Assembly (NCBI GenBank): GCA_948466735.1
Contig: CAOKBR010000001.1
Span: 3,266-67,265 of the forward strand
Source: an uncultured Mycoplasmatota bacterium
Lineage (GTDB): Bacteria; Bacillota_I; Bacilli_A; RF39; UBA660
Length of the DNA: 64,000 bases
Reading direction: 5' to 3'
Shown here: positions 7,997 through 58,744 of the stretch, one piece after another
Layout: each line of letters starts with the position of its first letter
Position numbering within the stretch: the stretch's first letter is position 1
Translations under genes and position numbers: made by a program
The notes under the pieces: generated by a model
The model's input: the letters and a program-made list of their open reading frames with translations, nothing else
Database searches by the model: none
Told to the model about the DNA's origin: nothing

Positions 7997-8682
7997 TTGC
8001 TTTATTATTAACAATTGGAGTATTAATTACCCATCAACATCAAATATTTTATGTAGGGGCAACAGATGTTTTACCTGAACCATTATCAAAGGAAATGGAA
8101 GAGTATTATCTAAATTTGGCAATGGATGGAGATACTTTTGCTAAGGACAAGTTAATTGAACATAATTTGCGATTAGTAGTGTTTCTTGCTAAGAAGTATG
8201 AAAACACAAAGATTGATTTAGAAGATTTAGTAAGTATTGGTACCATTGGTTTAATTAAAGGAATTAACACCTTTAGCATGGATAAAAACATTAAGTTAGC
8301 AACATACGCTTCAAGATGTATTGATAATGAGATTTTAATGTATTTAAGAAAAAATAAGAAAATAAAAACTGAGGTAAGCTTTGATGAGAGCCTAAGTTTT
8401 GATGCAGATGGAAATGAGTTGCATTTAGAGGATATTTTAGGAACAGAAGAAGATTTAGTAACTAAGGGATTAGAGAAAGAAACCGAGAGGAAATTATTAC
8501 TAAATGAAATTAGTAGATTAGACCCTAGAGATAGAGATATTATTGTGTTACGTTATGGACTAATGAATCACCGTGAGTTAACTCAAAAAGAGGTAGCTGA
8601 CTTATTAGGAATTAGTCAATCTTATATTTCAAGAATTGAAAAGAAGATTATTAATAGGTTAAAGGCGGTAATTAAATATTAG
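7993..8682 (+). CDS. sigE: RNA polymerase sporulation sigma factor sigma-E (pro-sigma-E)
   Basis: Near-identical blocks to B. subtilis SigE: 'LPEPLSKEME', 'NLRLVVFLAKKYENT', 'SIGTIGLIKGINTF', 'KLATYASRCIDNEILMYLR', 'GISQSYISRIEKK'. An N-terminal pro-sequence is present. Confidence 0.9.
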   Translation: MIALLLTIGVLITHQHQIFYVGATDVLPEPLSKEMEEYYLNLAMDGDTFAKDKLIEHNLRLVVFLAKKYENTKIDLEDLVSIGTIGLIKGINTFSMDKNIKLATYASRCIDNEILMYLRKNKKIKTEVSFDESLSFDADGNELHLEDILGTEEDLVTKGLEKETERKLLLNEISRLDPRDRDIIVLRYGLMNHRELTQKEVADLLGISQSYISRIEKKIINRLKAVIKY

Positions 8683-16458: not shown

Positions 16459-17817
16459 ATGAAGTTATCTAACGAATTATTATATCAATTTGCTTTATCA
16501 CATGATTTAATTGGAATGAAACAAGCCAAAAGTCGTCAATTATTATTAAAAGAATTTTTTGCAATGATGAAAAACATGACTACAGAAGAATTTGAACGAT
16601 GCCATTCCATTACTATTCGTAACCGTGAATATCAAAAGAAGGAATTACAATATTTAGCAATTTTAGTAAAGGACATGCACCAATATAATGATTTTTGCAA
16701 TGGCGAATTTTTAACGAAAGGCGAACTACCAAGTCCAAATTTAGCATTTTTATTTGATCAAGCCATGAAATTTCCGACTTTAGAAGCATTTCTTGCCTCT
16801 TATAAAGAAAGTGAAAAAAAGAACCTTTTAGATCTTTTAGAAACCTATCGAACTTATTATGCAACACCAAAAGAAAAAGAAAAGTATGATAACTTTAGAA
16901 GACAAAGCGACTATTTATATCGAAAAACACCATTATTTGTAGGCTATGAGGCATTTAACGCCTATTTAGAAAAAAAGAACAATCCTACTGCTGTAGAACA
17001 ATTTTTAACAAGAAATCACTTACCCAAAAGTGTCCCTATCCAACGCTATATCGCTAAATACTTACCATATGCTAGCAAGATAGAACTACAAGAATATAAA
17101 AGTGTATGTTCTAATGTCTTACTAGAAAGTAGAAGCACTATTCTTTTAAAAAAATGGTATCAGTGGTTAACATCTATTGATATAAAAGAAATGCCAAATT
17201 ATGAACAACAATTTTTAGAAAATGAAAACATTTCCTCAAGATTATTTCGTATCATTATCTTATCCAATAAACAATGTGATGATGTTGCTTATCAAAAATT
17301 ATATCAAAAAGTAATAGAACTAGAAGAATTTTACCAAGATATTAATGCTAAACGAAAAGAAAAAGAGATGAAAACTTTATTATCTTATCTTACGAATAAC
17401 CAATCTTATTTATTTATAGGAGAACCTTTTAATGTATTAGACTTCTTCTCTTTAACTGTATTTCCTTATAATGAAATAAGGCAAGATGGGTATTTCCACG
17501 ATAAAATCTTTAGACATTTACCTCCTTATCGAAAATTATATGCGACTTTATTAGCCGTACAACCTAAGAGTTATCAAGAAAAAAGACCATATTTTATTAC
17601 CAAAAGGGAAGACATTAGTGATATTGATACCATTAAATTAACAAATGATGAAGACTATCTTCTTAATGATTTAGAAAAAGATGCAATATGGAATTATATT
17701 GAAGAAATTGTCTTACCACGTACCTTTAATCTTAAAACCTATTATGAAATTGCTAAGGAGTTAATTACTCATCCAAACTACTTTGAGGAGTTTAAAACAC
17801 CAATTAAGAAACGTTAA
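16459..17817 (+). CDS. hypothetical protein, paralog A of a duplicated family
   Basis: 452 aa. Shares 'YNDFC.GE.L', 'ETYRTYYATP.EKE.YD', 'LKKWY..L..IDIK..PNY' and 'EKDAI.NYIE..V.PR' with 18927..20246. Confidence 0.5.
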   Translation: MKLSNELLYQFALSHDLIGMKQAKSRQLLLKEFFAMMKNMTTEEFERCHSITIRNREYQKKELQYLAILVKDMHQYNDFCNGEFLTKGELPSPNLAFLFDQAMKFPTLEAFLASYKESEKKNLLDLLETYRTYYATPKEKEKYDNFRRQSDYLYRKTPLFVGYEAFNAYLEKKNNPTAVEQFLTRNHLPKSVPIQRYIAKYLPYASKIELQEYKSVCSNVLLESRSTILLKKWYQWLTSIDIKEMPNYEQQFLENENISSRLFRIIILSNKQCDDVAYQKLYQKVIELEEFYQDINAKRKEKEMKTLLSYLTNNQSYLFIGEPFNVLDFFSLTVFPYNEIRQDGYFHDKIFRHLPPYRKLYATLLAVQPKSYQEKRPYFITKREDISDIDTIKLTNDEDYLLNDLEKDAIWNYIEEIVLPRTFNLKTYYEIAKELITHPNYFEEFKTPIKKR

Positions 17818-18926: not shown

Positions 18927-20246
18927 ATGATTAAACTATCACAGGAACAATTGTTACTTTTTGCACAAAAACATAAAATAGCAGAGCCAAGTAAGAAAAA
19001 AAATAGAGAACAATTACTATTAAATTTTGCAAAGACAATTAGAAGTATGGATAAAGAAACTTATGAAAAAGCAAAATATATTGAATTTAATGGTGAAAGA
19101 TTTACTAAAGACGAAGCAAAGATTTTAGTTGTGCTTGTAAAAAACATTAAAGAATATAATGACTTTTGTGAAGGAGAATATTTATCTAATACCAAAAGAA
19201 AACATAATGGCACTTTACGAAAACTTTTTCATGAAGCGTTATATTATAAAGATATCAATGACTTTGTATTCAATTATCCATTATTAACACAGAAAATGGA
19301 AATACTAGAAAAATTAGAAACCTTTAGAACATATTATGCTACACCAGTAGAAAAAGAACAATATGATGAATGGAAAAGAAAAGTGGAACCATGTTATCGA
19401 AAAACAAGAGCATTCATTGGATTCGAAGCACTAGATGCTTACTTAAAGAAAGATGAAGATCCTGATTTATTATTTCAATTTATGATTCAATATCAATGTA
19501 CTTCGATTATGACCGTTAAAGAATATATTAGTCAGTATTTACCATTTTGTTCTACCACGATACAACAACAATATCTAATGACTAAAGAAGAAATTCCTAT
19601 TCTTGGAATGTATGATGAACTATTAAAAAAATGGTATGTATTCTTACAACAAATAGATATTAAGAAAACACCAAATTATAAGGCACTATTTTTATTTAAC
19701 AACAATATTAAAAGTACGACTTTGGACAAAACGATGAAATACGCTAAAAATTACCGAGTAAGCATTTATGAAAAATGTATGAAGTTAATTGCTTTATATG
19801 ATCAAATTGTAATTAAACAAGCAAGAATTGAAACTGATACTCTTGCTTGCTACTATAACTTGGATCAATCTTATTTGTTTCCGTTATCATCTTTTACCAT
19901 CCTAGACTTTTTTGCACTAACATCTTTTTCACCAGAGTATATCAAACAAGAAGTTGGCTTTGATTTTTCTAATAGTAGAGCATATGATAACTTAGAAAAC
20001 GCTTTGTTTCCTAAAAAACAAGCGGCCATAAAAAAAGAAAAGTTAGCTACAACACCAGTAAAATTGGGAAGTAGAAGCGCTAAACGTATTAACAAAATAG
20101 AGAAAGATGCCATTATTAATTATATTGAACAAATGGTTTTTCCAAGAGAATTAACACTGGATTTATATCAGGTTATCATTAATGAATTATTAGCCCATCC
20201 ACAATATTTAACATCTTACCAAAAGAAGACTAAAGTCAAAAAATAA
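18927..20246 (+). CDS. hypothetical protein, paralog B of the duplicated family
   Basis: 439 aa, colinear with 16459..17817 over its full length. Confidence 0.5.
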   Translation: MIKLSQEQLLLFAQKHKIAEPSKKKNREQLLLNFAKTIRSMDKETYEKAKYIEFNGERFTKDEAKILVVLVKNIKEYNDFCEGEYLSNTKRKHNGTLRKLFHEALYYKDINDFVFNYPLLTQKMEILEKLETFRTYYATPVEKEQYDEWKRKVEPCYRKTRAFIGFEALDAYLKKDEDPDLLFQFMIQYQCTSIMTVKEYISQYLPFCSTTIQQQYLMTKEEIPILGMYDELLKKWYVFLQQIDIKKTPNYKALFLFNNNIKSTTLDKTMKYAKNYRVSIYEKCMKLIALYDQIVIKQARIETDTLACYYNLDQSYLFPLSSFTILDFFALTSFSPEYIKQEVGFDFSNSRAYDNLENALFPKKQAAIKKEKLATTPVKLGSRSAKRINKIEKDAIINYIEQMVFPRELTLDLYQVIINELLAHPQYLTSYQKKTKVKK

Positions 20247-22388: not shown

Positions 22389-23078
22389 ATGGACTTTTTA
22401 GAACGATTAAGTTTATTAATGGATAAAAATAAAATTGATGTTTTGAATAAATCAACAGTGATGGTTCTTGGTATTGGTGGAGTAGGGTCTTATTGTGTAG
22501 AAGCCTTAGTAAGAAGCGGTATTGGTAAAATCATTTTAATTGATCCAGATAGTATAGATATTAGTAATATTAATCGCCAATTAATTGCGTTACATTCTAC
22601 CATTGGACGAAAAAAAGTAGAAGTGATGAGAGATAGAATTTTAGATATTTCTCCTAACTGTGAAGTGGTAATTTATGATTTTTTCTATAACGATGAAAAT
22701 GCCACCATTCCTTTTTTAGAACAAAAGATTGATTTTGTTGTTGATGCTTGTGATAGCATCAAAAGTAAAGAAAGACTTATTTTACAGTGCCAGTCAAGAG
22801 ATGTTTCCTTTATTGTTAGTACAGGCACAGGAAATAGAATGGATCCTTCTTGTTTAGAAATTACTACCTTAGAAAAAACATCTAATGATCCTTTATCAAG
22901 AATTTTAAGAAAATGGATGAAAGAAAATCACATCAATAAAAAAATTCCTGTTTTGTGGTCTAGTGAAGTACCAATTAAAGTAAAGGATGGTATCATTGGC
23001 TCAAATAGTTTTGTTCCAGCAAGCGCAGGATTGATGATTGCTAGTTATGTTATACAACAACTCATTAAGAAAATTTGA
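22389..23078 (+). CDS. tcdA: ThiF/MoeB-family E1-like protein, probably the tRNA threonylcarbamoyladenosine dehydratase TcdA
   Basis: 'VLGIGGVGSYCVEALVRSGIGKIILIDPDSIDISNINRQL' Rossmann/ThiF motif; 229 aa, no Cys-rich C-terminus. Confidence 0.65.
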   Translation: MDFLERLSLLMDKNKIDVLNKSTVMVLGIGGVGSYCVEALVRSGIGKIILIDPDSIDISNINRQLIALHSTIGRKKVEVMRDRILDISPNCEVVIYDFFYNDENATIPFLEQKIDFVVDACDSIKSKERLILQCQSRDVSFIVSTGTGNRMDPSCLEITTLEKTSNDPLSRILRKWMKENHINKKIPVLWSSEVPIKVKDGIIGSNSFVPASAGLMIASYVIQQLIKKI

Positions 23079-23281
23079 TTTAACTAAAATTCTAAATGTT
23101 CGCTATATCCAAAAAATGTATTTCTGCTGATTGATGAAATGACTAAAGGAGAAAATGCAACTACTTTTGTCCCTAACGTCATTCAATTTGTTAGTGAAAG
23201 AACAATTATAGTTACAGTCAATAGACTATTTTCAAATAGATACATACTGTGTTATACTGATAAAGTATAGGAGTAAGTAGT

Positions 23282-23920
23282 ATGCGTAGTAAATTTATGG
23301 AATATTTAGAAAAGGATCATTCTTTTGATAAGTTGACCCTTCTAGGAATATTTTGCTTAATCATTGTTATTACAGGATGTTTTGGCTGGCTTTATGAATT
23401 TATTTTTTATTTCTTTAACGGAGGCATGAAAGAGTTTTACTGGCGTGGAGGAAATTTTCTTCCTTGGATTAATATTTATGCAACAGGGGCATTAATTGTT
23501 TACTTTTTAACTTATCGTTATCGAAAAAAGCCAGGAAAAGTATTTTTGATTGGTGTGCTTTCTTCTGGTATTTTAGAATATTTTTCAGGACTAGGGATGT
23601 ATATCATTGGAAATGGTATGCGTTGTTGGGACTATAACCAAGAGATTTTAAGCTTTGGAAGTATTCAAGGTTTTGTTTGTCTTAGAAGTGTTTTAGTCTT
23701 TGGAGTATTTAGTTTATTACTAATTTATACTGTTGTGCCTTTATGTTTTTATCTAGCCAAAAAGATTCCTAAAAAGATATTCTTAACGATTAGTTTTACT
23801 TTATGTACGATTATTTTAATTGATGAATTTTATAATTTATTATTTGCTAGAATTTTAAATACCCAAAGGGCAACTGCAATATATCGAAAGCTAGGATTCA
23901 AGTTTGTTCATTTTAAATAA
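23282..23920 (+). CDS. hypothetical polytopic membrane protein
   Basis: 212 aa with 5-6 hydrophobic segments and a 'WRGGNFLPWIN' motif. Confidence 0.4.
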   Translation: MRSKFMEYLEKDHSFDKLTLLGIFCLIIVITGCFGWLYEFIFYFFNGGMKEFYWRGGNFLPWINIYATGALIVYFLTYRYRKKPGKVFLIGVLSSGILEYFSGLGMYIIGNGMRCWDYNQEILSFGSIQGFVCLRSVLVFGVFSLLLIYTVVPLCFYLAKKIPKKIFLTISFTLCTIILIDEFYNLLFARILNTQRATAIYRKLGFKFVHFK

Positions 23921-33618: not shown

Positions 33619-34077
33619 TTATTTTACAATAATTTCAAATGAAGCGTTATTAGTAACCACACCTGAATAAAAGATAAGTGAGTATTTATCCTTTATAGGA
33701 ACCTCATAAATTAGTTCATAGGTAATTTCCTCATTTGATGGTATAGACATATTTTCGCTAGAAACAGGCGAATAAGGCTTGTTGTCTATCAATAAGGAAA
33801 AACTATTACTATTTATATTAGCACTGTTTTTGCTGGTGTTTTTAATCTTAAAAGATAAAAGCATAATCTTGTTTCCATCGCTTGCAGTTAAATGCAAATA
33901 TTCATCTTTAAAGGTTGCCTCCTTTAACATAATTTGAAAATGATCTATCTTTGCAAGTTCTTCTACTCGATAAGAAGTTTTATTTTCTTCCTTTAAAGAT
34001 AAATCCTGACATCCCGTCAAAAAGGGAATACTAATTATTCCTACAAATAAAAATTTTAATAATTTACTTTTTTTCAT
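33619..34077 (-). CDS. lipoprotein
   Basis: Signal peptide with lipobox 'FLTGC'; 152 aa, beta-rich. Confidence 0.55.
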   Translation of the reverse strand: MKKSKLLKFLFVGIISIPFLTGCQDLSLKEENKTSYRVEELAKIDHFQIMLKEATFKDEYLHLTASDGNKIMLLSFKIKNTSKNSANINSNSFSLLIDNKPYSPVSSENMSIPSNEEITYELIYEVPIKDKYSLIFYSGVVTNNASFEIIVK

Positions 34078-35438: not shown

Positions 35439-36605
35439 TTATTGTAAATTAGATAAAACACTTGTACCTATTTCGGGTTCTTCTACTTGAAAATTATCAG
35501 CGATTAATGCACCTATATCCGCTAAAGTAGCAAATGGCGATAGAATACCAGGATTTTTGAAGTCCCTACTAAATAAGATAACAGGTACATTTTCCCTAGT
35601 ATGATCGCTTCCTTGAAACGTTGGATCATTACCATGATCTGCTGTAATAATAAACAAATCTTCTGTTCCTAATTTATTTAACATCAAAGGAATTTCTACA
35701 TCTAATTCTTCAATTGCTTTAGCATAACCGATAACATCTCTTTTATGGCCATATAAAGAATCAAAATCACTTAAATTAGCATAACATAATCCCGTAAAAT
35801 TTTTATCCATAATCGAAGATAATTTATTCACCACATCATGATTATCCGTTGCTTTAATCACCTTAGTAATTCCGTCTCCATCAAAAATATCATTGATTTT
35901 TCCAATAGAAATGACATTTAACCCATGATTCTTTAGCGAACATAAAATAGAGTCTTTTGGAGGTTTTACTGCATAATCACATCGTTCATTTGTCCAGTGA
36001 AAGTGTCCAATGTTTCCTGTAAAAGGTCTAGCAATGACTCTACCTACTTTCCAATCTTCTCTTAAAGTAATCTCTCTAATTTTTTCACAATATTGATGTA
36101 GTTGTCCAACGGATACAATAGCATCATGAGCAGCCACTTGTAAATTTGAATCAGAATTGGTAAATACAATCAATGAGCCATAATTTACTTGCGTTTCCCC
36201 AAGTAATGGTAACACTTCATCTTCTTCCATCCGTTTGTTTCCAATAACACTTCTTCCTGTTACTTGTTCAATCATTTCAATTAATTCTACTGGAAATCCA
36301 TTTTGGGTAAAGGTCTTAAATGGAATAGTAGATTTTATGCCCATCATTTCATAATGTCCTGATAAGGTATCTTTGCCCACATTTGTAGGACGAGCAATGG
36401 TATAATAAGCGTCTACTTGTTTATTTTCATCCATTTGAATCGTATTTAAAAAGCCTAACTTTTTTAAATTGGGAATAAACAAATCATAGTTTTCTTTAAT
36501 ATGTCCTAGGGTATTAGCACTAGTATCTTGATACTTATCAGCATCCATTGCTGCACCTACTCCTAGGGAATCTAATACAATTAAAAAAATTCTTTTAAAT
36601 CTCAT
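35439..36605 (-). CDS. deoB: phosphopentomutase
   Basis: 'IVLDSLGVGA', 'TADHGNDPT', 388 aa. Confidence 0.9.
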   Translation of the reverse strand: MRFKRIFLIVLDSLGVGAAMDADKYQDTSANTLGHIKENYDLFIPNLKKLGFLNTIQMDENKQVDAYYTIARPTNVGKDTLSGHYEMMGIKSTIPFKTFTQNGFPVELIEMIEQVTGRSVIGNKRMEEDEVLPLLGETQVNYGSLIVFTNSDSNLQVAAHDAIVSVGQLHQYCEKIREITLREDWKVGRVIARPFTGNIGHFHWTNERCDYAVKPPKDSILCSLKNHGLNVISIGKINDIFDGDGITKVIKATDNHDVVNKLSSIMDKNFTGLCYANLSDFDSLYGHKRDVIGYAKAIEELDVEIPLMLNKLGTEDLFIITADHGNDPTFQGSDHTRENVPVILFSRDFKNPGILSPFATLADIGALIADNFQVEEPEIGTSVLSNLQ

Positions 36606-37543
36606 TTTTCCTCTCCTTTTTCGTCTTTTCTTAGATGATGTTTTTTATAGTCATCGTGTACTTTTTCATTAGAAACATGAGTATATATTTTGGTTGTCGT
36701 AATATCTTCATGCCCTAGTAGTTCTTGAATTACTCGAAGATTAGCTCCACGTTTTAACATGATGGTTGCAAAGGAATGTCTTATCGTATGGGGAGACACT
36801 TCTTTTTTTATGCCTTGCTTTAATAGAAGCTTCTTTAAGTTTTTAAAAAAGCCTTGTCTAGTAATTCCATTTCCATGATTATTTAAAAATAGAATATCTG
36901 TAGCTGGTTTACCTTTTACTAGTAAAAAAGGACGAACTTCTAGGTATTTTTCTAAATAATATTTTGCGTAATCGCCAAAGGGAATCATTCTCTCTTTTCT
37001 TCCCTTTCCTTTGATTTTAACCAATTGTGTAGAAAAGTCAAGGTCAAAAATTGTTAACTTTATTAATTCGCTAACGCGCATACCTGTAGCATACATCAAT
37101 TCTAGCATAGCTTTGTTACGGTAATCAAAGGCATTATTTAAGGGAATATTTAAAAGTTGTTCCATTTCTTTAGCATTTAGCACTTGTGGTAGACTACGTC
37201 CAATTTTAGGAGGATTAATCCCTGATGTGACATCGGCTGAAATTTGTTTTTCTCTTACTAAATAAAGAGAAAATCTACGCATGGTAGTTAAGTGTCTAGC
37301 CATACTTTTAGCACTTAAAGTGCATCCTAAAAAGGTTAAATACTCTTTTACCATTTTTTTCGTTAATCGATTTACTAAAAAGTCTTTATTATCTATCTTT
37401 CCTACACGATTATTATAGTGTTCATCTAGCCATCTGATGAATAGTTTTAAATCTTCTTGATAAGAATCTGTTGTAGCTTTGGCTAATCCTTTTTCAATTT
37501 TACAGTAGTCAATAAAATCATTCTTGGCATCTTCAATTTGCAT
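36602..37543 (-). CDS. xerD: tyrosine recombinase XerD
   Basis: 'HTIRHSFATIMLKRGANLRVIQELLGHEDITTTKIYTHV'. The catalytic R..HxxR..Y is present. Overlaps deoB by 4 nt, as in B. subtilis ripX-drm. Confidence 0.85.
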   Translation of the reverse strand: MQIEDAKNDFIDYCKIEKGLAKATTDSYQEDLKLFIRWLDEHYNNRVGKIDNKDFLVNRLTKKMVKEYLTFLGCTLSAKSMARHLTTMRRFSLYLVREKQISADVTSGINPPKIGRSLPQVLNAKEMEQLLNIPLNNAFDYRNKAMLELMYATGMRVSELIKLTIFDLDFSTQLVKIKGKGRKERMIPFGDYAKYYLEKYLEVRPFLLVKGKPATDILFLNNHGNGITRQGFFKNLKKLLLKQGIKKEVSPHTIRHSFATIMLKRGANLRVIQELLGHEDITTTKIYTHVSNEKVHDDYKKHHLRKDEKGEEK

Positions 37544-37762: not shown

Positions 37763-37791
37763 AGAAAACAAAAAGAACCGAAGTCCTTTTT
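37763..37791 (-). terminator. rho-independent terminator after essC (minus strand)
   Basis: Minus strand reads aaaaaggac-UUCG-gttcttttt then gtttt; the stem has one G.U pair. Confidence 0.4.
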
Positions 37792-40700
37792 ATAAAATCT
37801 CCTCGATATTATCATTACCACTTTGATTAGCCTCACTAGTCGTGTTAGAAGTAATTTTTGTAGAATCAAACTCTTCGATAAATTTAACTTGTACTGGACG
37901 ACTACGTGTTACAACAAAGCCAAAGTATGGTGGTAACTCTTCTCGATGTTCCCTAGTCACTTTGTTAATTTTTAAGGTAAATTGATCTCCTAAACCATTC
38001 CCTAAGTAAATTCCATAATTTGGATTTACCACATTTTTATACCAGGATTCTAGCTCTAGTCGTTTTGCTTTCTCCACATTTGCTACAATAATAAAGTGAA
38101 TTAATCCTAGGAATTTGCCCTTTTCTAAGACGCTTGCTAATAAGCTTCTATTTTCTTCATTTAACTTACTTCTAAAAGCATCAAATCCAATAATTGTACA
38201 AATAATCTTCTTTCTACTTGCAATAAAGTCTCTATTTTGATTTTTTTCTTGATATTCTATGAAAACGTCATCAATTGTTTTTTTCAACCATAAGAAGATT
38301 TCATCAAATTCTTTTTCATAATAGGAATATCCAGCATTAGGCTTAAATCCAACAATTTCTTCGGCATTAATCACTAAAACTTGTTCACGATTTAAATAGA
38401 CTAACTCATTGGTTAACGCCTTATAAAAACTAGAAAACTCTAAAATATCTTGTCCTAGAATTAAATTGACATACTGCTTAGTAAAATTAAATCCCAGTGG
38501 TTCTAAGTTTTCTTTTGCAATACCTAAAATAGGTAGTCCATTCTTTAAATAAGGATAAACATGTTTCGTTTCTACTCGTTTTGGTAAAATAGGAATGCTT
38601 CTAGCCTTTTCAAATTTTTCTGCCAAATGAGAAACGACCTTTCTAATATAATCAGGAATTTGATCAACTGGTGATACAAACGCGGTTTGAAATTCATATA
38701 TTTCTCCAAGATTTACTAAACCTCGACCTAGTATTTTTGACGGATACATTTTTTGAACATTTCCTAAAATATTACTATAATCCATGACATTCGTTTGTTG
38801 AAGTACGTACTCCATCGCAAAATTTTGTCTTACTTTAAAGCGAATGCCATTTAAATTGTTGATGGTTAACACAAAATAAATCCCATATTTTGGGGCTTCC
38901 CTTGTTAACTGGAAGAACTCATCTTCATACTTACTAAATGACTCTTGATAAGCTTCATAATTATTAATAACAACCACAATTTGAGGAATTTCCTTTCCAC
39001 TTTGCTGTAAAAAACCTTGAATAGTTCCATTAAATGGTGCAAACAATTGTTTTCTTTTTTCAATAATATCATCCATCATTTTATAAAAGTTATCCATTTT
39101 CTCATCTTCAGTCACTGTGATAATATCACCTACTTGTGGAGCATTTTCAAAACTTTTTAGCGTCTCTGATCCAAAGTCTAGTAAATAAATATTTACTTCA
39201 TTCGTTGTATATGTAGTAATTAACGAGTAAAATAATGTCGTTAAAAAGTTTTCTTTACCGCTACCAGTCATTCCATAGATAATTGCATTACCATTTTCAC
39301 TAAAAGGAATAGTTAACAAAGATTGACTTTGCTTATTTGGCATATCATATTCTCCAACAATGGGATTGATTATATGTTTTACTTTTTGGTATTGATACTT
39401 TTGAATTAAGCCTTGAACAGCAATATAACTAGGAAGTTTCTCTAACCATAAAGGACGCACCTTAATATTTATCTGTTTTGCCGCTTGAATTAAATAAGTA
39501 ACAATATTACTTAACTCTTCCCCGTGAGCTTCTATTTTTTCTTTTTTATGTTCAACATCCACTTCATGATAAATCACACCAATGTCATCAATAAATTCCA
39601 GCTTAGTATCCACTTCTTTTCTTGGCTTATCAACAGGTAAATAAGTTGCACCGCACCATGCTGCTTGACCTAAGACAAAAATTTCATTATATCCTACTTG
39701 TAAATAAAATCTTCCTGTTTGCGTTAATAATGCAGCTTCAGGAGATTTAATTACCTCGGTACTATCAGATTTTTCTTGAACACGTAAACATACCCTAAAT
39801 CTTGTATTACTCCAAATTTGATTATCCACGATACCTGATGGTTTTTGTGTTGCTAAGATCAAGTGAACGCCTAGGCTTCTACCAATTCTAGCAGTAGAGA
39901 TCAACTGTTGCATAAATTCTGGTTGTTGTGTTTTTAACTCTGCAAATTCATCGGTAATGATAAATAAATGGGAAATGGCCTCATCAACCACCCCTGCTCG
40001 ATATAATTGTTGGTACTTATAAATATCAATCGTATTTTCTTTTGATTTAGCACGCGCTTCATTAAACATTCTCTGCCGACGCTTTAACTCACTATCAATT
40101 GATGCAAACGAACGTTTAATCTCAGTTGCATCCAAGTTAGTAATGGTTCCTACTAAATGTGGTAATCTCTCACCTGTTAAATGATTTTCTAAACTTCCAC
40201 TTAATCCTCCACCTTTATAGTCAATCAAAATAAATTGAACTTCTTCTGGATGATAATTAACTGCCATTGATAAAATGTAAGTAATTAAAAGTTCACTTTT
40301 ACCACTACCTGTCATTCCAGCAACTAAACCATGAGGTCCAGCGTATTTTTCATGTAAATCCAAGCGAATTAACTCTTGATTTTTTCCAACGCCAATAGGT
40401 GCTTGTAATGATTGAATCGGGTTATTTTTCTGCCATCTAGAAATCGCATTTAACTGTTCCACAGTACCAATTTGATACATATTTAAAAAGCTTAACTTAC
40501 TTGGTAGTTTTCCTTCCACATTTAAAGTAATATCTAAAGGAATATTGGCTAAGACTCTAGCGCATTCTTCTAATTCTAAAGGGGTTGTAAAATCAATTTG
40601 AAATCTAGTTGTATTTGCGTTTAGTACATTGGCAAACAAATCAGAGTTTTTACTATTCGCATGAATAAACGTTTGACAAGATGTTGGAAGTGTTGATACA

Positions 40701-42439
40701 TTATCATTTAAGATAATCACACTAAAGCCCATATTCTTCTTACTTTCTAAAATGTGATTAATAAAATCAAAGTGTCGAACAGCTTTAAAATCGTCAATAA
40801 TTAATAAATAATGAAAAGGTATTGTATCCTCTTCTATTCTTTTTGATAAGTCGTGTTCTAGAAAATAACAAACTTCTTTTATATCGTCAGTATTAGAAGC
40901 AAAAAAACGCATTTTTTTATCATCACGGAAACAGTGAGGTAGAAATTTACTAAACTTCCAATCTTCCTTTTGACATTCATTAGTAAAAATTACAATTTTT
41001 AAATCATCATAAGAATGAAATGCCACAAGTTGTAAAATAATATTTTCAATCAATCTTTGGTTGACCTTTCTATTACCGATGATAGCGACAATATATTGTT
41101 CAACTAATGATAACGTAATAGGAACATCTACTAAATTTTTAGGTTCACTCCCTAGCGAATTTAGCATTTCTCGTAAATTATCTTCTTCTAAAGTAAAATG
41201 TTCTACTGGATAGTCAATACTAATTTTCATTGGAATAGTACCCATTCCAAGGCTTACCGTTAAAAAGTCTTGCTCTTCCTTTTTTCGCTCCCACAAATTA
41301 AATTTTTGATGAAGAATTACTTGTTTACATTCTTCTAGTGATAAATTATTTTCTAATAAAATATGTCTTTGCTGACGAATGGTATCAATAATTACTTGAC
41401 GTTTTTCTTCGATATATTCTCTATATTTCTTTTGACGTTTGGCTTCTTGCTTTTTTTGTTTTCTCTTATCAAAACGATTTGTTACAATAGGCCATAAAAT
41501 AACCGATGACATCATCGCTACACACATGACAATCGATGGTAAGACATTAATTAACTTAGCATTATTGTTTACTACATTATTAACAGCAACTAATCCCATC
41601 ATAGCAGATGACATTCCCATGGTAACCATTGGTCCTATAATAAGTAATAAAGGTCGATCATCTTCATTTACCTTGCTAGGAGGAGGGTCAATCACCATTT
41701 TTAATTCAGTTAAAATCGCCCGAAATCTAGGTTTTTTATGAAAATATGATGAGTCTTGATAAAGTTCTAACTCAATAAGTTCGTCACTTTCATTAACTGG
41801 AGCGATATATTCTTTTATTTGTTCTAAGATTAAAGGCGTTTTACACACCACTTTTTGAAAAGGCGAATTCACATTTAATAAAATTCCATCTTTTTTGATG
41901 ATAAAAACAATCTTTAATCCCATAAAAAATAAAATATCACCCGATGTTAATGCTTTAGGTTCAATTAATAATTGATGATTTAAATATACATTTTGATCAT
42001 GCATAAGATTACTAAGAATATATGATCCATTTTGATAAGTAATCTTTGCTTGAGTTGGCTTTAAGTATTCACTAGGATAGCAAATTGTATCTTCTTTGCT
42101 ACTACCAATAGTAATTTCACTTAGTAGCTCTACACGATAAAAACGATTACTAGAATCTAATAAAGGAGCCATGTATAAATACATTAACTCATGTGTCGAT
42201 ACATTTTCTAACGTATAAAAATGATACTCCTCTAAAACAACACTAGGAATCGTCATTCCCTGTTGTTTTATTGCCACTTCATAATTACTTAGTAAAACCC
42301 AATGATTTTCTTGTGCTACTACATTAATTAAGTTATCTTCACTATTAGCAAATAAATCTTTTATCCAGTAATTACCAAAAACTTGACGAGGAAGGGCAAA
42401 ATTTTTCATTTTTCCATTTTTTATGATGGACCCTTGCAT
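37790..42439 (-). CDS. essC: type VII secretion system FtsK/SpoIIIE-family ATPase EssC (YukB-like)
   Basis: 1549 aa. N-terminal FHA-like region, two TM helices, and three FtsK-type ATPase domains ('GMTGSGKSE', 'GMTGSGKEN', plus a third degenerate one). Confidence 0.9.
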   Translation of the reverse strand: MQGSIIKNGKMKNFALPRQVFGNYWIKDLFANSEDNLINVVAQENHWVLLSNYEVAIKQQGMTIPSVVLEEYHFYTLENVSTHELMYLYMAPLLDSSNRFYRVELLSEITIGSSKEDTICYPSEYLKPTQAKITYQNGSYILSNLMHDQNVYLNHQLLIEPKALTSGDILFFMGLKIVFIIKKDGILLNVNSPFQKVVCKTPLILEQIKEYIAPVNESDELIELELYQDSSYFHKKPRFRAILTELKMVIDPPPSKVNEDDRPLLLIIGPMVTMGMSSAMMGLVAVNNVVNNNAKLINVLPSIVMCVAMMSSVILWPIVTNRFDKRKQKKQEAKRQKKYREYIEEKRQVIIDTIRQQRHILLENNLSLEECKQVILHQKFNLWERKKEEQDFLTVSLGMGTIPMKISIDYPVEHFTLEEDNLREMLNSLGSEPKNLVDVPITLSLVEQYIVAIIGNRKVNQRLIENIILQLVAFHSYDDLKIVIFTNECQKEDWKFSKFLPHCFRDDKKMRFFASNTDDIKEVCYFLEHDLSKRIEEDTIPFHYLLIIDDFKAVRHFDFINHILESKKNMGFSVIILNDNVSTLPTSCQTFIHANSKNSDLFANVLNANTTRFQIDFTTPLELEECARVLANIPLDITLNVEGKLPSKLSFLNMYQIGTVEQLNAISRWQKNNPIQSLQAPIGVGKNQELIRLDLHEKYAGPHGLVAGMTGSGKSELLITYILSMAVNYHPEEVQFILIDYKGGGLSGSLENHLTGERLPHLVGTITNLDATEIKRSFASIDSELKRRQRMFNEARAKSKENTIDIYKYQQLYRAGVVDEAISHLFIITDEFAELKTQQPEFMQQLISTARIGRSLGVHLILATQKPSGIVDNQIWSNTRFRVCLRVQEKSDSTEVIKSPEAALLTQTGRFYLQVGYNEIFVLGQAAWCGATYLPVDKPRKEVDTKLEFIDDIGVIYHEVDVEHKKEKIEAHGEELSNIVTYLIQAAKQINIKVRPLWLEKLPSYIAVQGLIQKYQYQKVKHIINPIVGEYDMPNKQSQSLLTIPFSENGNAIIYGMTGSGKENFLTTLFYSLITTYTTNEVNIYLLDFGSETLKSFENAPQVGDIITVTEDEKMDNFYKMMDDIIEKRKQLFAPFNGTIQGFLQQSGKEIPQIVVVINNYEAYQESFSKYEDEFFQLTREAPKYGIYFVLTINNLNGIRFKVRQNFAMEYVLQQTNVMDYSNILGNVQKMYPSKILGRGLVNLGEIYEFQTAFVSPVDQIPDYIRKVVSHLAEKFEKARSIPILPKRVETKHVYPYLKNGLPILGIAKENLEPLGFNFTKQYVNLILGQDILEFSSFYKALTNELVYLNREQVLVINAEEIVGFKPNAGYSYYEKEFDEIFLWLKKTIDDVFIEYQEKNQNRDFIASRKKIICTIIGFDAFRSKLNEENRSLLASVLEKGKFLGLIHFIIVANVEKAKRLELESWYKNVVNPNYGIYLGNGLGDQFTLKINKVTREHREELPPYFGFVVTRSRPVQVKFIEEFDSTKITSNTTSEANQSGNDNIEEIL

Positions 42440-42539
42440 AACGTTTCCCCTTTTCTCTTTTAAAATTTCATTTTCTTATCCAAAAGATGAACCCAATTAC
42501 TTTTGGATAAAAAAACTTAGTGTTTTTAATTAAGTTTTT

Positions 42540-42839
42540 TTAATTTGAATTTCCAATAACAGATTGATCGACACTGCGATAATTTTCAACAACTTTCATT
42601 AAGTAGCGATGACAATCATCAATTGCTTGGACAAATTGTGGAAATTTTGCGCTTAACGTATCAAATTGTTCTCTAGTGTGACTAGCAGAAACTCCAGCCC
42701 AAATTTCTTCTGTTCCAATTAAACGAAACAAAGATTGGATATCATTATTTAATAATGCATCCATTTGATTAGCAGCAGATTTTAACTGTTCTGCCAAAGA
42801 CATTATTTGTTCATAAGTTAATTTTGAACCACCTAGCAT
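42540..42839 (-). CDS. WXG100-family protein
   Basis: 99 aa, helical, central 'EEIWAGVSA' (W-x-G). Confidence 0.55.
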   Translation of the reverse strand: MLGGSKLTYEQIMSLAEQLKSAANQMDALLNNDIQSLFRLIGTEEIWAGVSASHTREQFDTLSAKFPQFVQAIDDCHRYLMKVVENYRSVDQSVIGNSN

Positions 42840-42853
42840 TTTTTTTCTCCTTT

Positions 42854-43141
42854 CTATAAGTTAATTGCCCCTTCATTATCTTGACATGCTTGTTCGTATG
42901 CAGTTGCTACTCTTACCACCGTTTGTCCTAACTCTTCAATAGTATCAGACAATTTTTGCATGTACTGAGATTGTTCGGTGATTGCATTAGAATACTTCAT
43001 GGCATCACTTCCTTGCCATGCATCTTTTAACTGATTATTAATATTCATAATCTTGTTTAAAAGTTCACGAAATTCTTGACCTTTATTAGCGATTTGATTT
43101 CCTGTAGTTCTAGTTTCTTCGTAATTGATGTTTAAATCCAT
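42854..43141 (-). CDS. esxA: WXG100-family protein, EsxA/ESAT-6-like
   Basis: 95 aa with 'LKDAWQGSDAMKY' placed centrally. Confidence 0.65.
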   Translation of the reverse strand: MDLNINYEETRTTGNQIANKGQEFRELLNKIMNINNQLKDAWQGSDAMKYSNAITEQSQYMQKLSDTIEELGQTVVRVATAYEQACQDNEGAINL

Positions 43142-43243
43142 ATTGCCACCCCCTTTCCATCCTTAGCCTCTTTACTAATTCTATAATCTTATATAAATTA
43201 TATCATAAAAAAGTAAATTCAAGCAACCATTCTTTTTTGATGA

Positions 43244-44968
43244 TTATTTGTTTTTGATAAAATTAAGATATTTATCATAAGAACTATCTTTCATGTTATC
43301 AACGTATTTATACCACCAATCGTATTCTGTTCCTTGACTATCTTTATAATGGTTTGGATTTTGTACCCAGTTATTATCGTAAATATTACTTCCCTTTGCT
43401 GGTACCCATTCTGCATTAGCTCCATTATATAAAGGGTTCATGTTATAGGCTAAACTTTTTTCAGGATCATAGTAACTTTGTTCTTTTACCCAATCTAAGT
43501 AAGATTCCATTAACTTGGCTTGGGCATCTGTTCCATTTTCAATACTAGCAATAATATCGACATTACCATTTTCATCTAATACAGAAAAATCTTTATAATC
43601 TCCATTAGCACGCAAACCACCATAATTAAATTTATTTTGGGCAAGATTACTAGCGCCTAATCCACCTTCGAAATCCATAATCGCAAGAATTGTTGCTACG
43701 GTATCTTTATCTTCTATTCCATGACTAGCTAATGCATCAACCATTTTCATGCGAACTATATCAGGATTAATAATTTGCTTGCCCTTATATTCAGTGTAAA
43801 ACATATCATCGGTAACATTGATTTCTACCTTTGGCACTTTTTCACTACTTTCCTTTTCGTTTGTATTTTTATGATCAACTTTTTTCTCTTCCTTAAGGAC
43901 TGTTACTATTTTAGCAGGTTCAGTAAATAAGGAAGCTTTAGCATCGGTAGTAACACCTTCTGATTCCTTTAAACGATTAACATCCATCGCTCCAGCAAAA
44001 ATATTTTTAAATTCTTCTAGTTGAATATCTGCTAAATGATAAGTAGCATAAGCACGTATTCCTGTTTCTAGACCACTGGCCATTTTATGTTCAGATAAAG
44101 CATCTTCCAGCGCTTCAATGTTTTCAATGTAAGCATTCCACCACGAATGAATATTGCTATAACCTTGATTTACTGCTTCATAAAACTCTTTTAATTCTCC
44201 TGCTACTCGGTTGTTATTAGCATCTTCACCATTAATAGCTCCACAGCTTAAATATTCCTGATAACTATTTGCATACTCATTCATTCGTTCATTAAATGTT
44301 GCAAAGGTATCTTTTAATCCTTGCATATTGACCAAAAATTCATTTTCATTAAATGAATTAAAATAATCAATCGTATCAGCGCTTTTATAAGAAGACATAC
44401 TAGATTTGATAGAAAAATTTTCAATTACTATTAATTGTGCGTTTAATTTTTCTAAAACAATCGTTAATGCAGCGTTAGCTTTTTCAATTTCTTGCTCTAG
44501 CCTTGAAATTTCTGCTGCTACTTCTGGGACAATCACTTGTTTTGTTACAGTATTTCCGTTTTCATCAGTTACAGTGATGGTACGATATAGTTTAGGTAGT
44601 AGTGAAGATATTTCAGCTTGCATAGCATCAATACTTCCTTGAATGGTTTTTGCCTCTGCTTCATAACTTTTATAAGTATCTACATGATCTAAAAACTCAT
44701 TATATGACATTAATCCTGCCACTAAATCTTGATAACGATTTCCAAGTTGTCCCATTAAGCTAGATAATTTACTAGCACTTTCACACCTTGCTACGCTAGG
44801 AGTAGAAATTTGATGAGCCATCTCTTTTGTTTTTGCACGTGATGCTGTTGCTATAGCGTTTGAAGTCATTGTTCTAGTGACATTAGAATCAAAAGAAACT
44901 TTCCCTACTACTCTTGATGCTGCAAGCCTTTGAGCATCAACTTGGTTGTTTAACTGATAATTTCTCAT
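43244..44968 (-). CDS. T7SS-associated large helical protein with a C-terminal GH73 glucosaminidase-like (FlgJ/AcmA-type) domain
   Basis: 574 aa with no TM segment. The long N-terminal region is helical and coiled-coil. The C-terminus 'MDFEGGLGASNLAQNKFNYGGLRA' matches the GH73 core 'ILESGSGTSALAQNHNNLFGIK'. Confidence 0.5.
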   Translation of the reverse strand: MRNYQLNNQVDAQRLAASRVVGKVSFDSNVTRTMTSNAIATASRAKTKEMAHQISTPSVARCESASKLSSLMGQLGNRYQDLVAGLMSYNEFLDHVDTYKSYEAEAKTIQGSIDAMQAEISSLLPKLYRTITVTDENGNTVTKQVIVPEVAAEISRLEQEIEKANAALTIVLEKLNAQLIVIENFSIKSSMSSYKSADTIDYFNSFNENEFLVNMQGLKDTFATFNERMNEYANSYQEYLSCGAINGEDANNNRVAGELKEFYEAVNQGYSNIHSWWNAYIENIEALEDALSEHKMASGLETGIRAYATYHLADIQLEEFKNIFAGAMDVNRLKESEGVTTDAKASLFTEPAKIVTVLKEEKKVDHKNTNEKESSEKVPKVEINVTDDMFYTEYKGKQIINPDIVRMKMVDALASHGIEDKDTVATILAIMDFEGGLGASNLAQNKFNYGGLRANGDYKDFSVLDENGNVDIIASIENGTDAQAKLMESYLDWVKEQSYYDPEKSLAYNMNPLYNGANAEWVPAKGSNIYDNNWVQNPNHYKDSQGTEYDWWYKYVDNMKDSSYDKYLNFIKNK

Positions 44969-44980
44969 TACTGTACACCT

Positions 44981-45289
44981 CTATTCAATATAAAAACTAT
45001 CGTCCATAGTAGACATAATTTTTTTATCTAATTGTTGATAATTTTCTTTCGTTTTTTGTAAAACACTAATACATTTTCTTAATTCAACATCTACACTTTC
45101 TATACTATTTACAAAATTTGTTAAACGATTAGCATAGAAATCAGCAGCCCTACCTTGCCATAGACTTTTTTGATTTATTGTATTTGATACTTGTTTTACT
45201 TGTTCTAGCGTATGATTGATATCTTCTACAATGGAAGTAAATTCCACAATACAAGAATCAACTTTTTCATAAGACATTTTCTCTTTCAT
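44981..45289 (-). CDS. small WXG100-like helical protein
   Basis: Start refined to 'MKEKMSYEKV' after GGAG. Central 'SLWQGRAADFY' W-x-G motif. Confidence 0.45.
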   Translation of the reverse strand: MKEKMSYEKVDSCIVEFTSIVEDINHTLEQVKQVSNTINQKSLWQGRAADFYANRLTNFVNSIESVDVELRKCISVLQKTKENYQQLDKKIMSTMDDSFYIE

Positions 45290-45299
45290 GATTATCTCC

Positions 45300-45593
45300 T
45301 TATATGTTGATGTTTCTTTGGGCAAATGTTTTATCTAATAGTTCATATGCTCCTGGTACTTTATTTAAATATGTTCCATAGTGATTAATTTGTTTGGCTA
45401 ACTCTTGTAATCCAATGATATATTTGCTACGGATAGCATCTTGGTAAATATTAGCATCTTCCCCACTCCATGCTTCTTGTAACTGCTCCAGCAATTGATT
45501 TAATTGTTGGATTTTTTGATTAATTTGATTTGAACACTCCATTAATTCTAATCCCAAATGACGAATTTCTTCTTTTTTAATTTCAGTAATCAT
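45300..45593 (-). CDS. small WXG100-like helical protein
   Basis: Start refined to 'MITEIKKEE' after AAAGGA. Central 'QEAWSGEDANIY' W-x-G motif. Confidence 0.5.
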   Translation of the reverse strand: MITEIKKEEIRHLGLELMECSNQINQKIQQLNQLLEQLQEAWSGEDANIYQDAIRSKYIIGLQELAKQINHYGTYLNKVPGAYELLDKTFAQRNINI

Positions 45594-45606
45594 AAATATA
45601 TCCTTT

Positions 45607-45861
45607 CTATAACAATATGAGTTTAGTACCATTCCGAATATCTGTTTGTTCTAAAAGCATTTGATCTAAATATTCTTCATGAGTAATTTGATTGAGTAGA
45701 GTATAGGCATATGTCGAGATATACCTTCCATCAGATAATTCGCCAACGGCCTTTTTTAATAATTTTTTAATCGAACCTATGGTTAATTGAATAGGTAAAA
45801 ATATATCGTATTCTTCTTCAATCAAAGGGACAAATAGACGCACCAATACTTTGTTTTTCAA
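45607..45861 (-). CDS. esaB: EsaB/YukD-like small ubiquitin-fold T7SS protein
   Basis: 84 aa, GGAGG RBS, first gene of the cluster. Size and position match YukD/EsaB. The sequence match itself is weak. Confidence 0.45.
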   Translation of the reverse strand: MKNKVLVRLFVPLIEEEYDIFLPIQLTIGSIKKLLKKAVGELSDGRYISTYAYTLLNQITHEEYLDQMLLEQTDIRNGTKLILL

Positions 45862-58108: not shown

Positions 58109-58330
58109 TTATCTAATCACATCAATTAATGTACGAATCATTTCAATTCCTTGGGAAATTTGATTTACTTTATCTTCCATTGTCAATTTATAACGTTGTT
58201 TCATTTCTTTTTCCATCTCTTTAATGGCTAATGGATTTCGATTCAATTTTTTATACCAGTAAGAATACTCTCGTAAATAACGATATAAATTGGGATTAGA
58301 TCTAATTTGCATTTGTAAATCGATACTCAT
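58109..58330 (-). CDS. YlbE-like small protein
   Basis: 'YRYLREYSYWYKKLNRNPLAIKEMEKEMKQRY' resembles B. subtilis YlbE 'WRYIEHHPDWYRRLSRNP...' as recalled. Confidence 0.4.
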   Translation of the reverse strand: MSIDLQMQIRSNPNLYRYLREYSYWYKKLNRNPLAIKEMEKEMKQRYKLTMEDKVNQISQGIEMIRTLIDVIR

Positions 58331-58680
58331 TAATCATCAAACCTTTGGTAACGATTTCTAGGCTCATAACTTCTTGGGTTTTGATTATTTCCTGTTAAAT
58401 GCAAATCTTGGACTAAAGTAATCGCTTTTTGTAGTCCTGCTACCCCTTTTCTTACCGTTTCTAAATCTACTTTTTTAATCATGTTAAATAATTCTTGTAA
58501 AGAACCATCGTCCTTTGTTGTAGTAGGATTACTATTTAAATAAGGTTTCCAAACTTCATGATCTTCGCCATACATTTCATACATCTCATAATATTTTTGC
58601 CATGTTCCTTGATTGTTTAATACCGCTTTTGCTAATTCAGGGTGAACCTTGGCAAATTGTTTAAAACTTTCCTTCGACAT
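58330..58680 (-). CDS. YlbD-like putative spore coat protein
   Basis: 'FKQFAKVHPELAKAVLNNQGTWQKYYEMYEMYGED' resembles the YlbD family. Start refined to the ATG after GGTGA. Confidence 0.4.
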   Translation of the reverse strand: MSKESFKQFAKVHPELAKAVLNNQGTWQKYYEMYEMYGEDHEVWKPYLNSNPTTTKDDGSLQELFNMIKKVDLETVRKGVAGLQKAITLVQDLHLTGNNQNPRSYEPRNRYQRFDD

Positions 58681-58744
58681 ACATATCACCTATTAAAAGT
58701 GTATGCGATAAAATCAAATTGTTGATGTGAATTAGACGAATTTC

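Follow-up and report, generated by a model that had tools for sequence, protein, structure and literature searches.

A candidate type VIIb secretion substrate of uncultured gut Bacilli combining a fused accessory part, an LXG-analogous targeting domain and a remotely GH73-like C-terminal domain

Several toxins exported through secretion systems of type VIIb (T7SSb) have been described together with small dedicated partners: the LXG toxins, such as TelA and TelC of S. intermedius, are the precedent for tripartite targeting with Lap proteins (PMC10801868), and EsaD of S. aureus, encoded with EsxB, EsxC, EsxD and EsaE, has three partner proteins (PMC10653861). In mycobacteria, the ESX-4 system, which belongs to type VIIa (T7SSa), was reported in 2026 to secrete EatA, a toxin with endo-D-arabinanase activity of family GH183 (PMC13444075). 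Moreover, the GH73 domain of FlgJ is exported through the flagellar type III apparatus that it serves (PMC4752226), EssH is a wall hydrolase encoded at the T7SSb locus of S. aureus (PMC10765036, PMC13059805), and a 'Tox-Glucosaminidase' domain was catalogued in 2012 for delivery by the type VI secretion system (T6SS) or the Photorhabdus virulence cassette (PVC) (PMC3482391). No T7SSb substrate with a peptidoglycan glycosidase was found in the literature searched, and none is listed in the T7SSb reviews up to 2026. Here we analyse a gene for a protein of 574 amino acids (aa), located at 43244..44968 on the minus strand of a 64,000-nucleotide window (contig CAOKBR010000001.1, positions 3,266 to 67,265) from an uncultured member of the Bacilli present in gut metagenomes; coordinates given without a locus name refer to this window. 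We suggest, with a probability of about one half, that the protein is a divergent GH73-like peptidoglycan hydrolase exported by the T7SSb as an antibacterial effector.

The 574-aa protein shares with the LXG toxins and with EsaD a helical N-terminal transport region followed by a putative enzymatic cargo, and its gene is likewise placed 3' of small WXG100-like partners with YxxxD-type C-termini and beside the gene of the ATPase EssC. As for TelA, a DUF4176 gene stands before the toxin in sister loci, and the family to which its targeting domain belongs has, like the LXG toxins, conserved N-termini and variable C-termini. Unlike in LXG toxins, there are no meaningful scores here for PF04740 (LXG) or for DUF3130, DUF3958, DUF5344 and DUF5082, the targeting domain is internal (residues 201-340), with a third partner protein fused in front of it, no adjacent immunity gene is present, and the cargo would be a peptidoglycan glycosidase instead of a nuclease, NADase, lipid II phosphatase, pore-former or lipase. 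By analogy, the protein seems to work like an LXG toxin with its Lap/Esx partners, yet it fails the LXG sequence test. The similarity with EatA is of a different kind: also in that case a housekeeping-type wall glycoside hydrolase was 'weaponised', with a helical T7 targeting region, helical partners and a site of action outside the membrane. By contrast, EatA belongs to the T7SSa of Actinobacteria and to a different GH family, is directed against arabinan and has the immunity protein EatI in its locus; its activity, export and killing were shown experimentally, whereas the window protein is known from sequence alone.

The C-terminal domain (residues 396-574; 43247..43783, minus strand) had been considered GH73-like in the initial annotation. 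In the isolated domain, PF01832 (Glucosaminidase) was the sole Pfam match (E = 0.034, 15.2 bits, with a gathering threshold of 30.2), and phmmer of the single sequence against the PDB sequences gave only coiled-coil noise or nothing. Since this E value is not significant, and the full-length protein gives no match, the motif becomes more than a chance similarity only through the evidence at the family level. Word-indexed homolog searches, with the full-length protein and with the C-domain, recovered nothing but a single fragment of 144 aa besides the protein itself. Instead, an exhaustive search of 1.84 billion cluster representatives identified two distant relatives of the C-domain, P0003 and P0008 (the latter by phmmer, E = 1e-5), a profile search added P0044, P0045 and P0046 (E = 1e-25 to 7e-42), and a further relative was present in the locus L012; for the first five, P0008 excepted, the E values of the link with the query range from 1e-25 to 2e-71. 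In five of them PF01832 is again the only or the best Pfam family, with E from 5.3e-6 (P0046) to 3.3e-3 and scores of 18.5-27.5 bits, all under the threshold, and the profile coordinates are consistent, all the matches beginning at position 17-18. When a profile of seven family sequences (A9) was searched against 177,635 PDB sequences at E ≤ 10, all four matches were GH73 chains, namely 8yxk (E = 0.0037), which is a glucosaminidase domain from an endolysin of C. difficile, and LytB of the pneumococcus (E = 0.075-0.73); an earlier profile (A2) had found the same GH73 chains in three matches out of four, the other being a non-GH73 protein with E = 4.3.

The PDB matches of the seven-sequence profile were aligned on the core E-x-G-x-G-x-S ... 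NNxxG, and the catalytic-core motif FEGGLGASNLAQNKFNYGGLRA (residues 433-454; 43607..43672, minus strand) corresponds to E-[ST]-G-x-G-x-S ... NNxFG of 8yxk and LytB. The position of the catalytic Glu, already indicated in the initial annotation, is in fact occupied: E434 is paired with the Glu of 'HETGNGSS' in 8yxk and of 'LESNWGRS' in LytB, and is invariant in all seven family sequences together with G436, G438, S440, N448, G451, S505-L506, N509-M510 and Y514, while N441 varies. E434 is the predicted general acid of the domain: as expected for this residue, it stands where the central helix ends and lies within an E-[STG]-G-x-G-x-S motif, with NNxxG after it. The conserved residues listed for 'Tox-Glucosaminidase' are E, N and Y (PMC3482391); E434, N448 and Y514 correspond to this signature, and were counted in favour of the GH73-like assignment. 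The glucosaminidase toxins delivered by T6SS and PVC have the same type of C-terminal cargo, a lysozyme fold related to PF01832 with the E/N/Y signature, but they are not T7SS substrates, and the T6SS effectors have adjacent periplasmic immunity proteins.

A lysozyme-like fold, consisting of a helical lobe and an extended beta-hairpin, is supported by the AlphaFold model of the C-domain, calculated from six sequences (mean predicted local distance difference test score, pLDDT, 66.9; predicted template modelling score, pTM, 0.66). As a candidate for the second catalytic carboxylate we indicate D465/E466, at the predicted tip of the hairpin and 31-32 residues past E434, which are kept in the ortholog of the closest representative genome (L010) and not in the membrane-anchored relatives. 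With 87% identity to this ortholog and a ratio of nonsynonymous to synonymous substitution rates (dN/dS) of 0.059, the C-domain is under stronger constraint than any other part of the protein; as dS is ~1.3 and near saturation, only the ranking of dN/dS from region to region is trustworthy. An insertion in which Trp, Tyr and Asn are abundant (residues ~515-560; 43289-43423), with ~20% aromatic residues against 10% overall, was found only in the two T7SS-linked orthologs and not in the membrane-anchored relatives, and may represent an added glycan-binding surface. No match was obtained in the PHROGs scan of the domain, and thus evidence for an origin from a phage lysin is lacking. Taken at the family level, the sequence comparisons support a GH73 affinity and the domain can be described as a remote relative of the GH73 N-acetylglucosaminidases; because it scores below the Pfam threshold and has no significant match in Foldseek, we use 'GH73-like' for remote homology and not for family membership. 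In this sense the initial assignment is largely right, at the level of remote homology.

Residues 1-200 (44369..44968, minus strand) are homologous to an accessory protein of 161 or 168 aa that is encoded separately in sister loci of related bacteria. A hidden Markov model of three such proteins matches residues 41-144 with E = 1.3e-5 in a database of 2126 ORFs (open reading frames), blastp of the region against the 161-aa protein gives E = 2e-4, and the signature 'L(Y/L)P(R/K)LYRT...T.TD..G' is common to both. Since the region matches a separate 161-aa protein, the 574-aa protein is to be regarded as a fusion of helper, targeting domain and enzyme-like domain, as currently judged from remote homology in an uncultured organism. 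Moreover, artificial chimeras, in which the 161-aa protein was joined to the first 135 residues of the toxin of the same locus, were collinear with residues 1-345, with Met191 facing the start codon of the toxin. In the sister locus L040 the 168-aa gene and the toxin gene are immediately adjacent, and for this reason a simple read-through fusion is plausible. That partner and toxin parts are naturally fused is direct genetic evidence for a joint action of the targeting domain with the 161-aa accessory protein. The separate proteins have no Pfam match and are encoded at 2596-3078 in L005, 9158-9640 in L007, 4344-4847 in L008 and 3168-3668 in L040.

In the AlphaFold2 (AF2) model of residues 1-345 (pLDDT 70.5), in which the N-terminal 200 residues were modelled without homologs, two long helices (62-127 and 148-192) are joined by a beta-hairpin (128-146) into a prefoldin-like unit, and the pLDDT of residues 91-180 is ~86-96. 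In TelA, a pair of short antiparallel strands likewise divides the helices of the LXG domain (PMC10801868); the likeness of our model to this arrangement is a resemblance and not a test.

The targeting domain (residues 201-340; 43949..44368, minus strand), predicted as a helix hairpin (H215-241 / H250-296), belongs to an uncurated family. In an exhaustive phmmer search, residues ~210-330 matched residues ~5-125 of ~38 proteins of 87-1594 aa (E = 3e-7 to 8e-4), which share the motif GYxNIDxWWxxYxxNxExLExxLS (alignment A3); in the query the motif reads GYSNIxSWWxxYxxNxExLExxLS, with the WW at 276-277. The family (P0004-P0043, where the domain forms the N-terminal ~125 aa) has ~40 representatives at 50% clustering and members up to 1916 aa. 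Among 25 members of at least 500 aa, the N-terminus is common to all and the central region to most, whereas the last 250 residues of each are shared with at most four others, with the exception of two ~590-aa members whose C-termini are still within the common central region. A conserved helical domain heading variable C-termini, as found in this family, is a polymorphic-toxin architecture, and the proteins seem to form a family of polymorphic toxins, LXG-analogous and so far undescribed, in uncultured gut Bacilli, even if the query carries the domain internally. The gene of one member precedes an ADP-ribosylglycohydrolase gene, and another member has a weakly transglutaminase/papain-like C-terminus. 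PF04740 matched neither the query nor 23 family members at E ≤ 10, and in the same Pfam scan of the 23 members no consistent family and no WXG100 match emerged; by hhalign, the family alignment gave a probability of 0.2% with the WXG100 proteins of the locus (A7) and of 1.3% with the 161-aa family. Matches of the targeting-domain profile to bromodomains in the PDB (E ~0.008, over a helical stretch of 50 residues) were judged to be chance. Between the targeting domain and the C-domain lies a charged, poorly conserved and presumably flexible linker (residues 341-395; 43784..43948, minus strand), with 55% identity to the L010 ortholog compared with 85-87% in the flanking domains.

The 574-aa gene is part of an apparent operon on the minus strand, which ends with essC and in which the gaps to the WXG100 genes on both sides are 12-102 bp. 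Its ORF extends from ATG to stop and is preceded, ~8 nt 5' of the start, by the Shine-Dalgarno sequence GAGGTG, a strong ribosome-binding site. The first gene of the operon (45607..45861) codes for an 84-aa EsaB/YukD-like protein with 30-40% identity (E 1e-15 to 1e-18) to the 84/85-aa products of the first genes in L005, L007 and L008; in Pfam and NCBIfam scans it had no match, and we infer its assignment from size, position and the beta-grasp-like C-terminal '...NGTKLILL'. Two WXG100-like, Lap/Esx-like helpers follow. Helper 1 (45300..45593), whose length of 97 aa reflects the start taken by the gene callers at an internal ATG, has a WSG motif, a C-terminal YELLD and a WXG100 score just under the cut-off (E = 9e-6), and is orthologous to a 97-aa gene located 2-3 genes 5' of the toxin in L005, L007 and L008 (E 1e-15 to 1e-23). 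Helper 2 (44981..45289; 102 aa) ends with YQQLD, matches WXG100 with E = 7e-6 and DUF3130/Lap1 weakly (E = 0.019), and is orthologous to the 109/111-aa gene of the same three loci (E 1e-10 to 1e-11). Past the 574-aa gene are two WXG100 proteins above the PF06013 cut-off, an EsxA-like protein of 95 aa (42854..43141; PF06013 49.5 bits, TIGR03930 48.7 bits) and an EsxB-like protein of 99 aa with C-terminal YRSVD (42540..42839; PF06013 31.7 bits); they are the counterpart of the first WXG100 pair of the sister loci, being 52% and 53% identical, respectively, to the L007 genes. EssC (37790..42439; 1549 aa) has a Forkhead-associated (FHA) domain (PF00498) and FtsK/SpoIIIE ATPase domains (PF01580), and matches TIGR03928 with E = 4.9e-304 and 1011.7 bits, against a cut-off of 778.4. 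A Firmicutes-type EssC and WXG100 substrates, which together define a T7SSb locus, are thus both present. YxxxD occurs near the C-terminus of the two helpers and of the 99-aa WXG100 protein, and a motif of this class is needed for the export of Lap1 and of T7SSa substrates (PMC10801868).

On the basis of these data, the location of the gene within a T7SS locus and between WXG100 genes, as proposed in the initial annotation, is confirmed, although its placement directly upstream of EssC has to be corrected, as the 95- and 99-aa WXG100 genes intervene. The N-terminal region is helical in the AF2 model and has no transmembrane segment, as had been noticed; in the whole protein the highest mean Kyte-Doolittle (KD) hydropathy over 19 residues is 1.35. 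Its supposed LXG/WXG-like character found no support, neither PF04740 nor WXG100 similarity emerging from any sequence test (Pfam, hhalign). Also the absence of an adjacent immunity-like gene holds, given that the short gaps around the gene contain no separate ORF of at least 25 aa, apart from those overlapping the genes themselves.

In L005, L007 and L008 the gene order is YukD-like, two WXG100, 97-aa, 109/111-aa, 161/168-aa, DUF4176, large protein, small gene(s) and EssC. The accessory gene, in the sister loci, lies between the pair of small helpers and the toxin. The large proteins examined in their context are four, P0005 (L005 4145-8134), P0007 (L007 10001-14770), P0004 (L008 5151-8432) and the one of L040 (3697-9444), and their genes are all 5' of EssC, with only variable small genes between; in L005, L007 and L008 these are 1-2 genes past the toxin, for a leucine-rich repeat (LRR) protein, a DUF4176 protein, an ADP-ribosylglycohydrolase, or unknowns. 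Thus, in the family of the targeting domain, as in LXG toxins, the toxin gene is 3' of small helical, Lap-like partner genes and linked to EssC. Among the cases examined, helper orthologs and targeting domain were found only in EssC loci. L005, L007, L008 and L040, with the same minimal gene set, have no GH73-like hydrolase, and polymorphic toxins occupy that slot.

The protein itself is found, identical, on six independent metagenome contigs, and an ortholog of 573 aa, which matches it in architecture and synteny, is present in a related metagenome-assembled genome (MAG), on contig CASRZP010000018 (L010), where EssC is 85% identical to that of the window; the six contigs and the ortholog indicate that the ORF is not an assembly artefact. 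The other members of the C-domain family are proteins of 257-391 aa, plus the 141-aa fragment P0046. Four of them, P0003, P0008, P0044 (KD maxima 1.8-2.1) and the L012 sequence, have an N-terminal membrane anchor or signal-anchor, which was absent in P0045 and in the fragment, and those with known context adjoin housekeeping genes (tmk, corA). The 574-aa protein has neither a Sec signal nor a transmembrane segment, so that T7SS export is the only evident route to its substrate.

Taken together, these observations suggest the following model. The protein would consist of a fused helper (residues 1-200), a targeting domain (201-340), a flexible linker and a lysozyme-fold hydrolase (396-574) with Glu434 as general acid. 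In the cytoplasm, its helical N-terminal part would bundle with the 97- and 102-aa WXG100-like proteins, each carrying a C-terminal YxxxD, and, by analogy with the LXG-Lap and EsaD-EsxBCD complexes, EssC would recognise and export the resulting elongated helical shaft; outside the membrane, the C-domain would cleave the glycan strands of peptidoglycan, presumably of competing bacteria. The hydrolase domain could come from a lineage-specific housekeeping wall enzyme and have been captured by the locus at the position of the toxin, with self-protection provided by something other than an adjacent immunity gene. Of the two roles proposed in the initial annotation, antibacterial effector or EssH-like wall remodelling, the effector role is favoured because the targeting domain is otherwise found on toxin-like proteins in the same slot, and because EatA is a direct precedent for a housekeeping wall enzyme captured as a T7 toxin; furthermore, as such an enzyme is absent from sister loci whose machinery is equally minimal, the machine does not appear to have a general need for a T7-exported glycosidase. 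If the protein is active and exported, it would represent the first T7SSb cargo of the peptidoglycan glycosidase class, and the idea of the 'weaponised wall-remodelling enzyme' would extend to Firmicutes and to peptidoglycan itself. Independently of this role, the analysis defines an uncurated LXG-analogous family of targeting domains.

On the other hand, several results weigh against an antibacterial effector with GH73-like activity. The C-domain reaches about half of the Pfam gathering threshold, which does not make it a GH73 member, and the full-length protein has no match of note in Pfam, PF01832 included, or in NCBIfam. The C-domain model is of moderate quality, with pLDDT <50 around the catalytic loop and the beta-hairpin, an element that is mobile in real GH73 structures (PMC4752226), and Foldseek against the PDB found nothing significant (best E = 0.55). 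Structure prediction gave, in fact, a helical N-terminal part and a moderate lysozyme-fold model of the C-terminal part, neither with significant structural matches: for the N-terminal model the best PDB hit was prefoldin (E = 0.029), which reflects only the helix-hairpin-helix shape and makes the structural search uninformative. No similarity to LXG or WXG100 was detectable in the targeting domain. The cognate immunity gene that accompanies LXG toxins is missing, which is unusual for an antibacterial toxin, and the slot between the 574-aa ORF and the WXG100 pair, filled by variable small genes in the sister loci, is empty. Likewise unusual for such a toxin, the protein is strongly conserved between two species, and not polymorphic, and among ~15 billion proteins the fusion is confined to these two, the window species and one relative. 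Finally, EssA, EssB and EsaA were not found in the Pfam annotation, which extends over most of the window.

Several of these same results would be expected if the protein were instead a wall-opening enzyme similar in role to FlgJ or EssH, which cuts locally the producer's own peptidoglycan for the T7SS substrates or for the machine; we consider this alternative tentative, and rather unlikely. Being local and self-directed, such an activity would need no immunity protein, in agreement with the absence of a gene in the immunity position, and the strong conservation of the protein between the two species, with a dN/dS of 0.06 in the enzyme domain, would fit this role, as does the fact that this is the sole large substrate gene of the locus. 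The domain has its nearest relatives in membrane-anchored proteins that related uncultured bacteria (the one in L012 is labelled Bacilli) encode beside tmk or corA and that presumably act on the wall of their own cells, and the lack of EsaA, EssA and EssB in the window points in the same direction. FlgJ offers the precedent of a GH73 domain exported through the apparatus that it serves and, like the 574-aa protein, it has a C-terminal GH73-type domain with the general-acid Glu on the central helix beside a mobile beta-hairpin, an N-terminal part belonging to the export/assembly apparatus and no Sec signal (PMC4752226); it works, however, in another secretion system, has no N-terminal homology, and its wall-penetration role is established, whereas here that role is one of two candidates. 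EssH is the T7SSb precedent, as a wall hydrolase at the locus that could solve the same thick-wall problem, and the crossing of the wall by T7SSb substrates has been described in a 2026 review as an open question (PMC13492133). Nevertheless, EssH is a Sec-dependent CHAP-type amidase/endopeptidase with a signal peptide, divergently transcribed and not homologous to the 574-aa protein, in which neither a CHAP match nor a hydrophobic N-terminal segment is present and which has, inside the operon, a glycosidase-type fold and a T7 substrate-type N-terminus. Moreover, L005, L007, L008 and L040 do without such a hydrolase and carry polymorphic toxins instead, and the targeting domain is otherwise associated with toxin-like architectures. 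In its more specific form, a FlgJ-like 'drill' by which a minimal T7SSb exports its own glycosidase, with a fused partner, to open the producer's wall for other substrates, the proposal is in our opinion unlikely; if true, it would give a new answer to how T7SSb cargo crosses the Gram-positive wall.

Two further explanations concern the cargo and the export, respectively. The C-domain could be an inactive or re-purposed lysozyme fold, binding glycans or acting on a glycan other than peptidoglycan (host mucin, chitin-like), so that the protein would be an exported adhesin or another factor. Its distance from the curated GH73 proteins (15 bits), the second catalytic carboxylate on the beta-hairpin, unconserved in the family, and the query-specific Trp/Tyr-rich insertion at ~515-560, of a type often seen on sugar-binding surfaces, would fit; yet strong purifying selection acts on the general-acid Glu and the E/N/Y signature, which do not vary in the family, the hairpin carboxylate is also missing from some active GH73 enzymes (PMC4752226), and all the matches at sequence level are peptidoglycan glucosaminidases, which makes this explanation improbable. 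Even less probable is that the protein is not a T7SS substrate at all but a cytoplasmic or otherwise released autolysin, involved, for example, in mother-cell lysis, its similarity to toxins being a structural coiled-coil effect. It is true that the window encodes SpoIIGA and a neighbouring sigma factor, that wall hydrolases have roles in sporulation, that no LXG/WXG100 signature is detectable and that we infer, rather than observe, the export. Against this, the gene shares orientation, short gaps and an apparent operon with the WXG100 genes and EssC, the same synteny is kept in L010, and the helper orthologs and the targeting domain are restricted, in the cases examined, to EssC loci.

The origin and the host of the locus were also considered. 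A mobile element, conjugative or phage, with an FtsK-like ATPase and a lysin, was rejected because EssC passes the T7SS equivalog model, the GC content is uniform across the window (~30%), and the flanks are housekeeping, with rarA and dnaJ-pepF-dnaK-grpE-hrcA on one side and xerD-like and deoB-like genes on the other. The XerD-like tyrosine recombinase (36602-37543), immediately 3' of EssC and kept in L010, is probably the housekeeping xerD and not a sign of a mobile island; in L010 an additional Pfam-less ORF of 456 aa, which the window does not have, lies between EssC and this gene. In the window (37790-45861), as in L005, L007, L008, L010 and L040, the EsaB/YukD-like gene and EssC are the sole recognisable machinery, and EssA, EssB and EsaA were not found in L005, L007 and L008 either; these Bacilli either run a minimal T7SSb or encode the membrane components elsewhere in the genome. 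A wall-less producer, which would account for the absent immunity gene, was rejected, since the window encodes SpoIIGA with an adjacent sporulation-type sigma factor and YlbD/YlbE homologs (YlbD_coat/YlbE), at 7229-8682 and in the region 58330-58689, as well as a polysaccharide deacetylase; by its gene content, the host appears to be a walled endospore-former and not a wall-less member of the former 'Mollicute' lineage.

The polysaccharide deacetylase (PF01522; 17875-18747) is flanked by two Pfam-less ORFs, at 16459-17817 (452 aa) and 18927-20246 (439 aa). Lysozyme resistance is known to arise when peptidoglycan is de-N-acetylated and, as pure speculation, this enzyme might supply self-protection in place of an immunity gene. 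The nearest exported small protein, and as such a possible immunity candidate, is a 152-aa lipoprotein with DUF4352 and the lipobox LTGC (33619-34077, minus strand), 3.7 kb beyond EssC and in the same place in L010.

In L012 (10001-21563), tandem EssC genes (1544 and 1533 aa) are followed by six consecutive ~105-aa genes on the opposite strand and, past them, by the membrane-anchored homolog of the GH73-like domain (22504-23676); its vicinity to EssC (8 kb) was treated as a coincidence, as the other homologs adjoin tmk or corA. In L011 (8554-9900), L012 (8978-9922) and L013 (8323-9900), directly 5' of an EssC that is 50% identical, we observed genes for proteins in which a DUF4176-like N-terminal domain is followed by a proline-rich repetitive tail of 250-450 residues.

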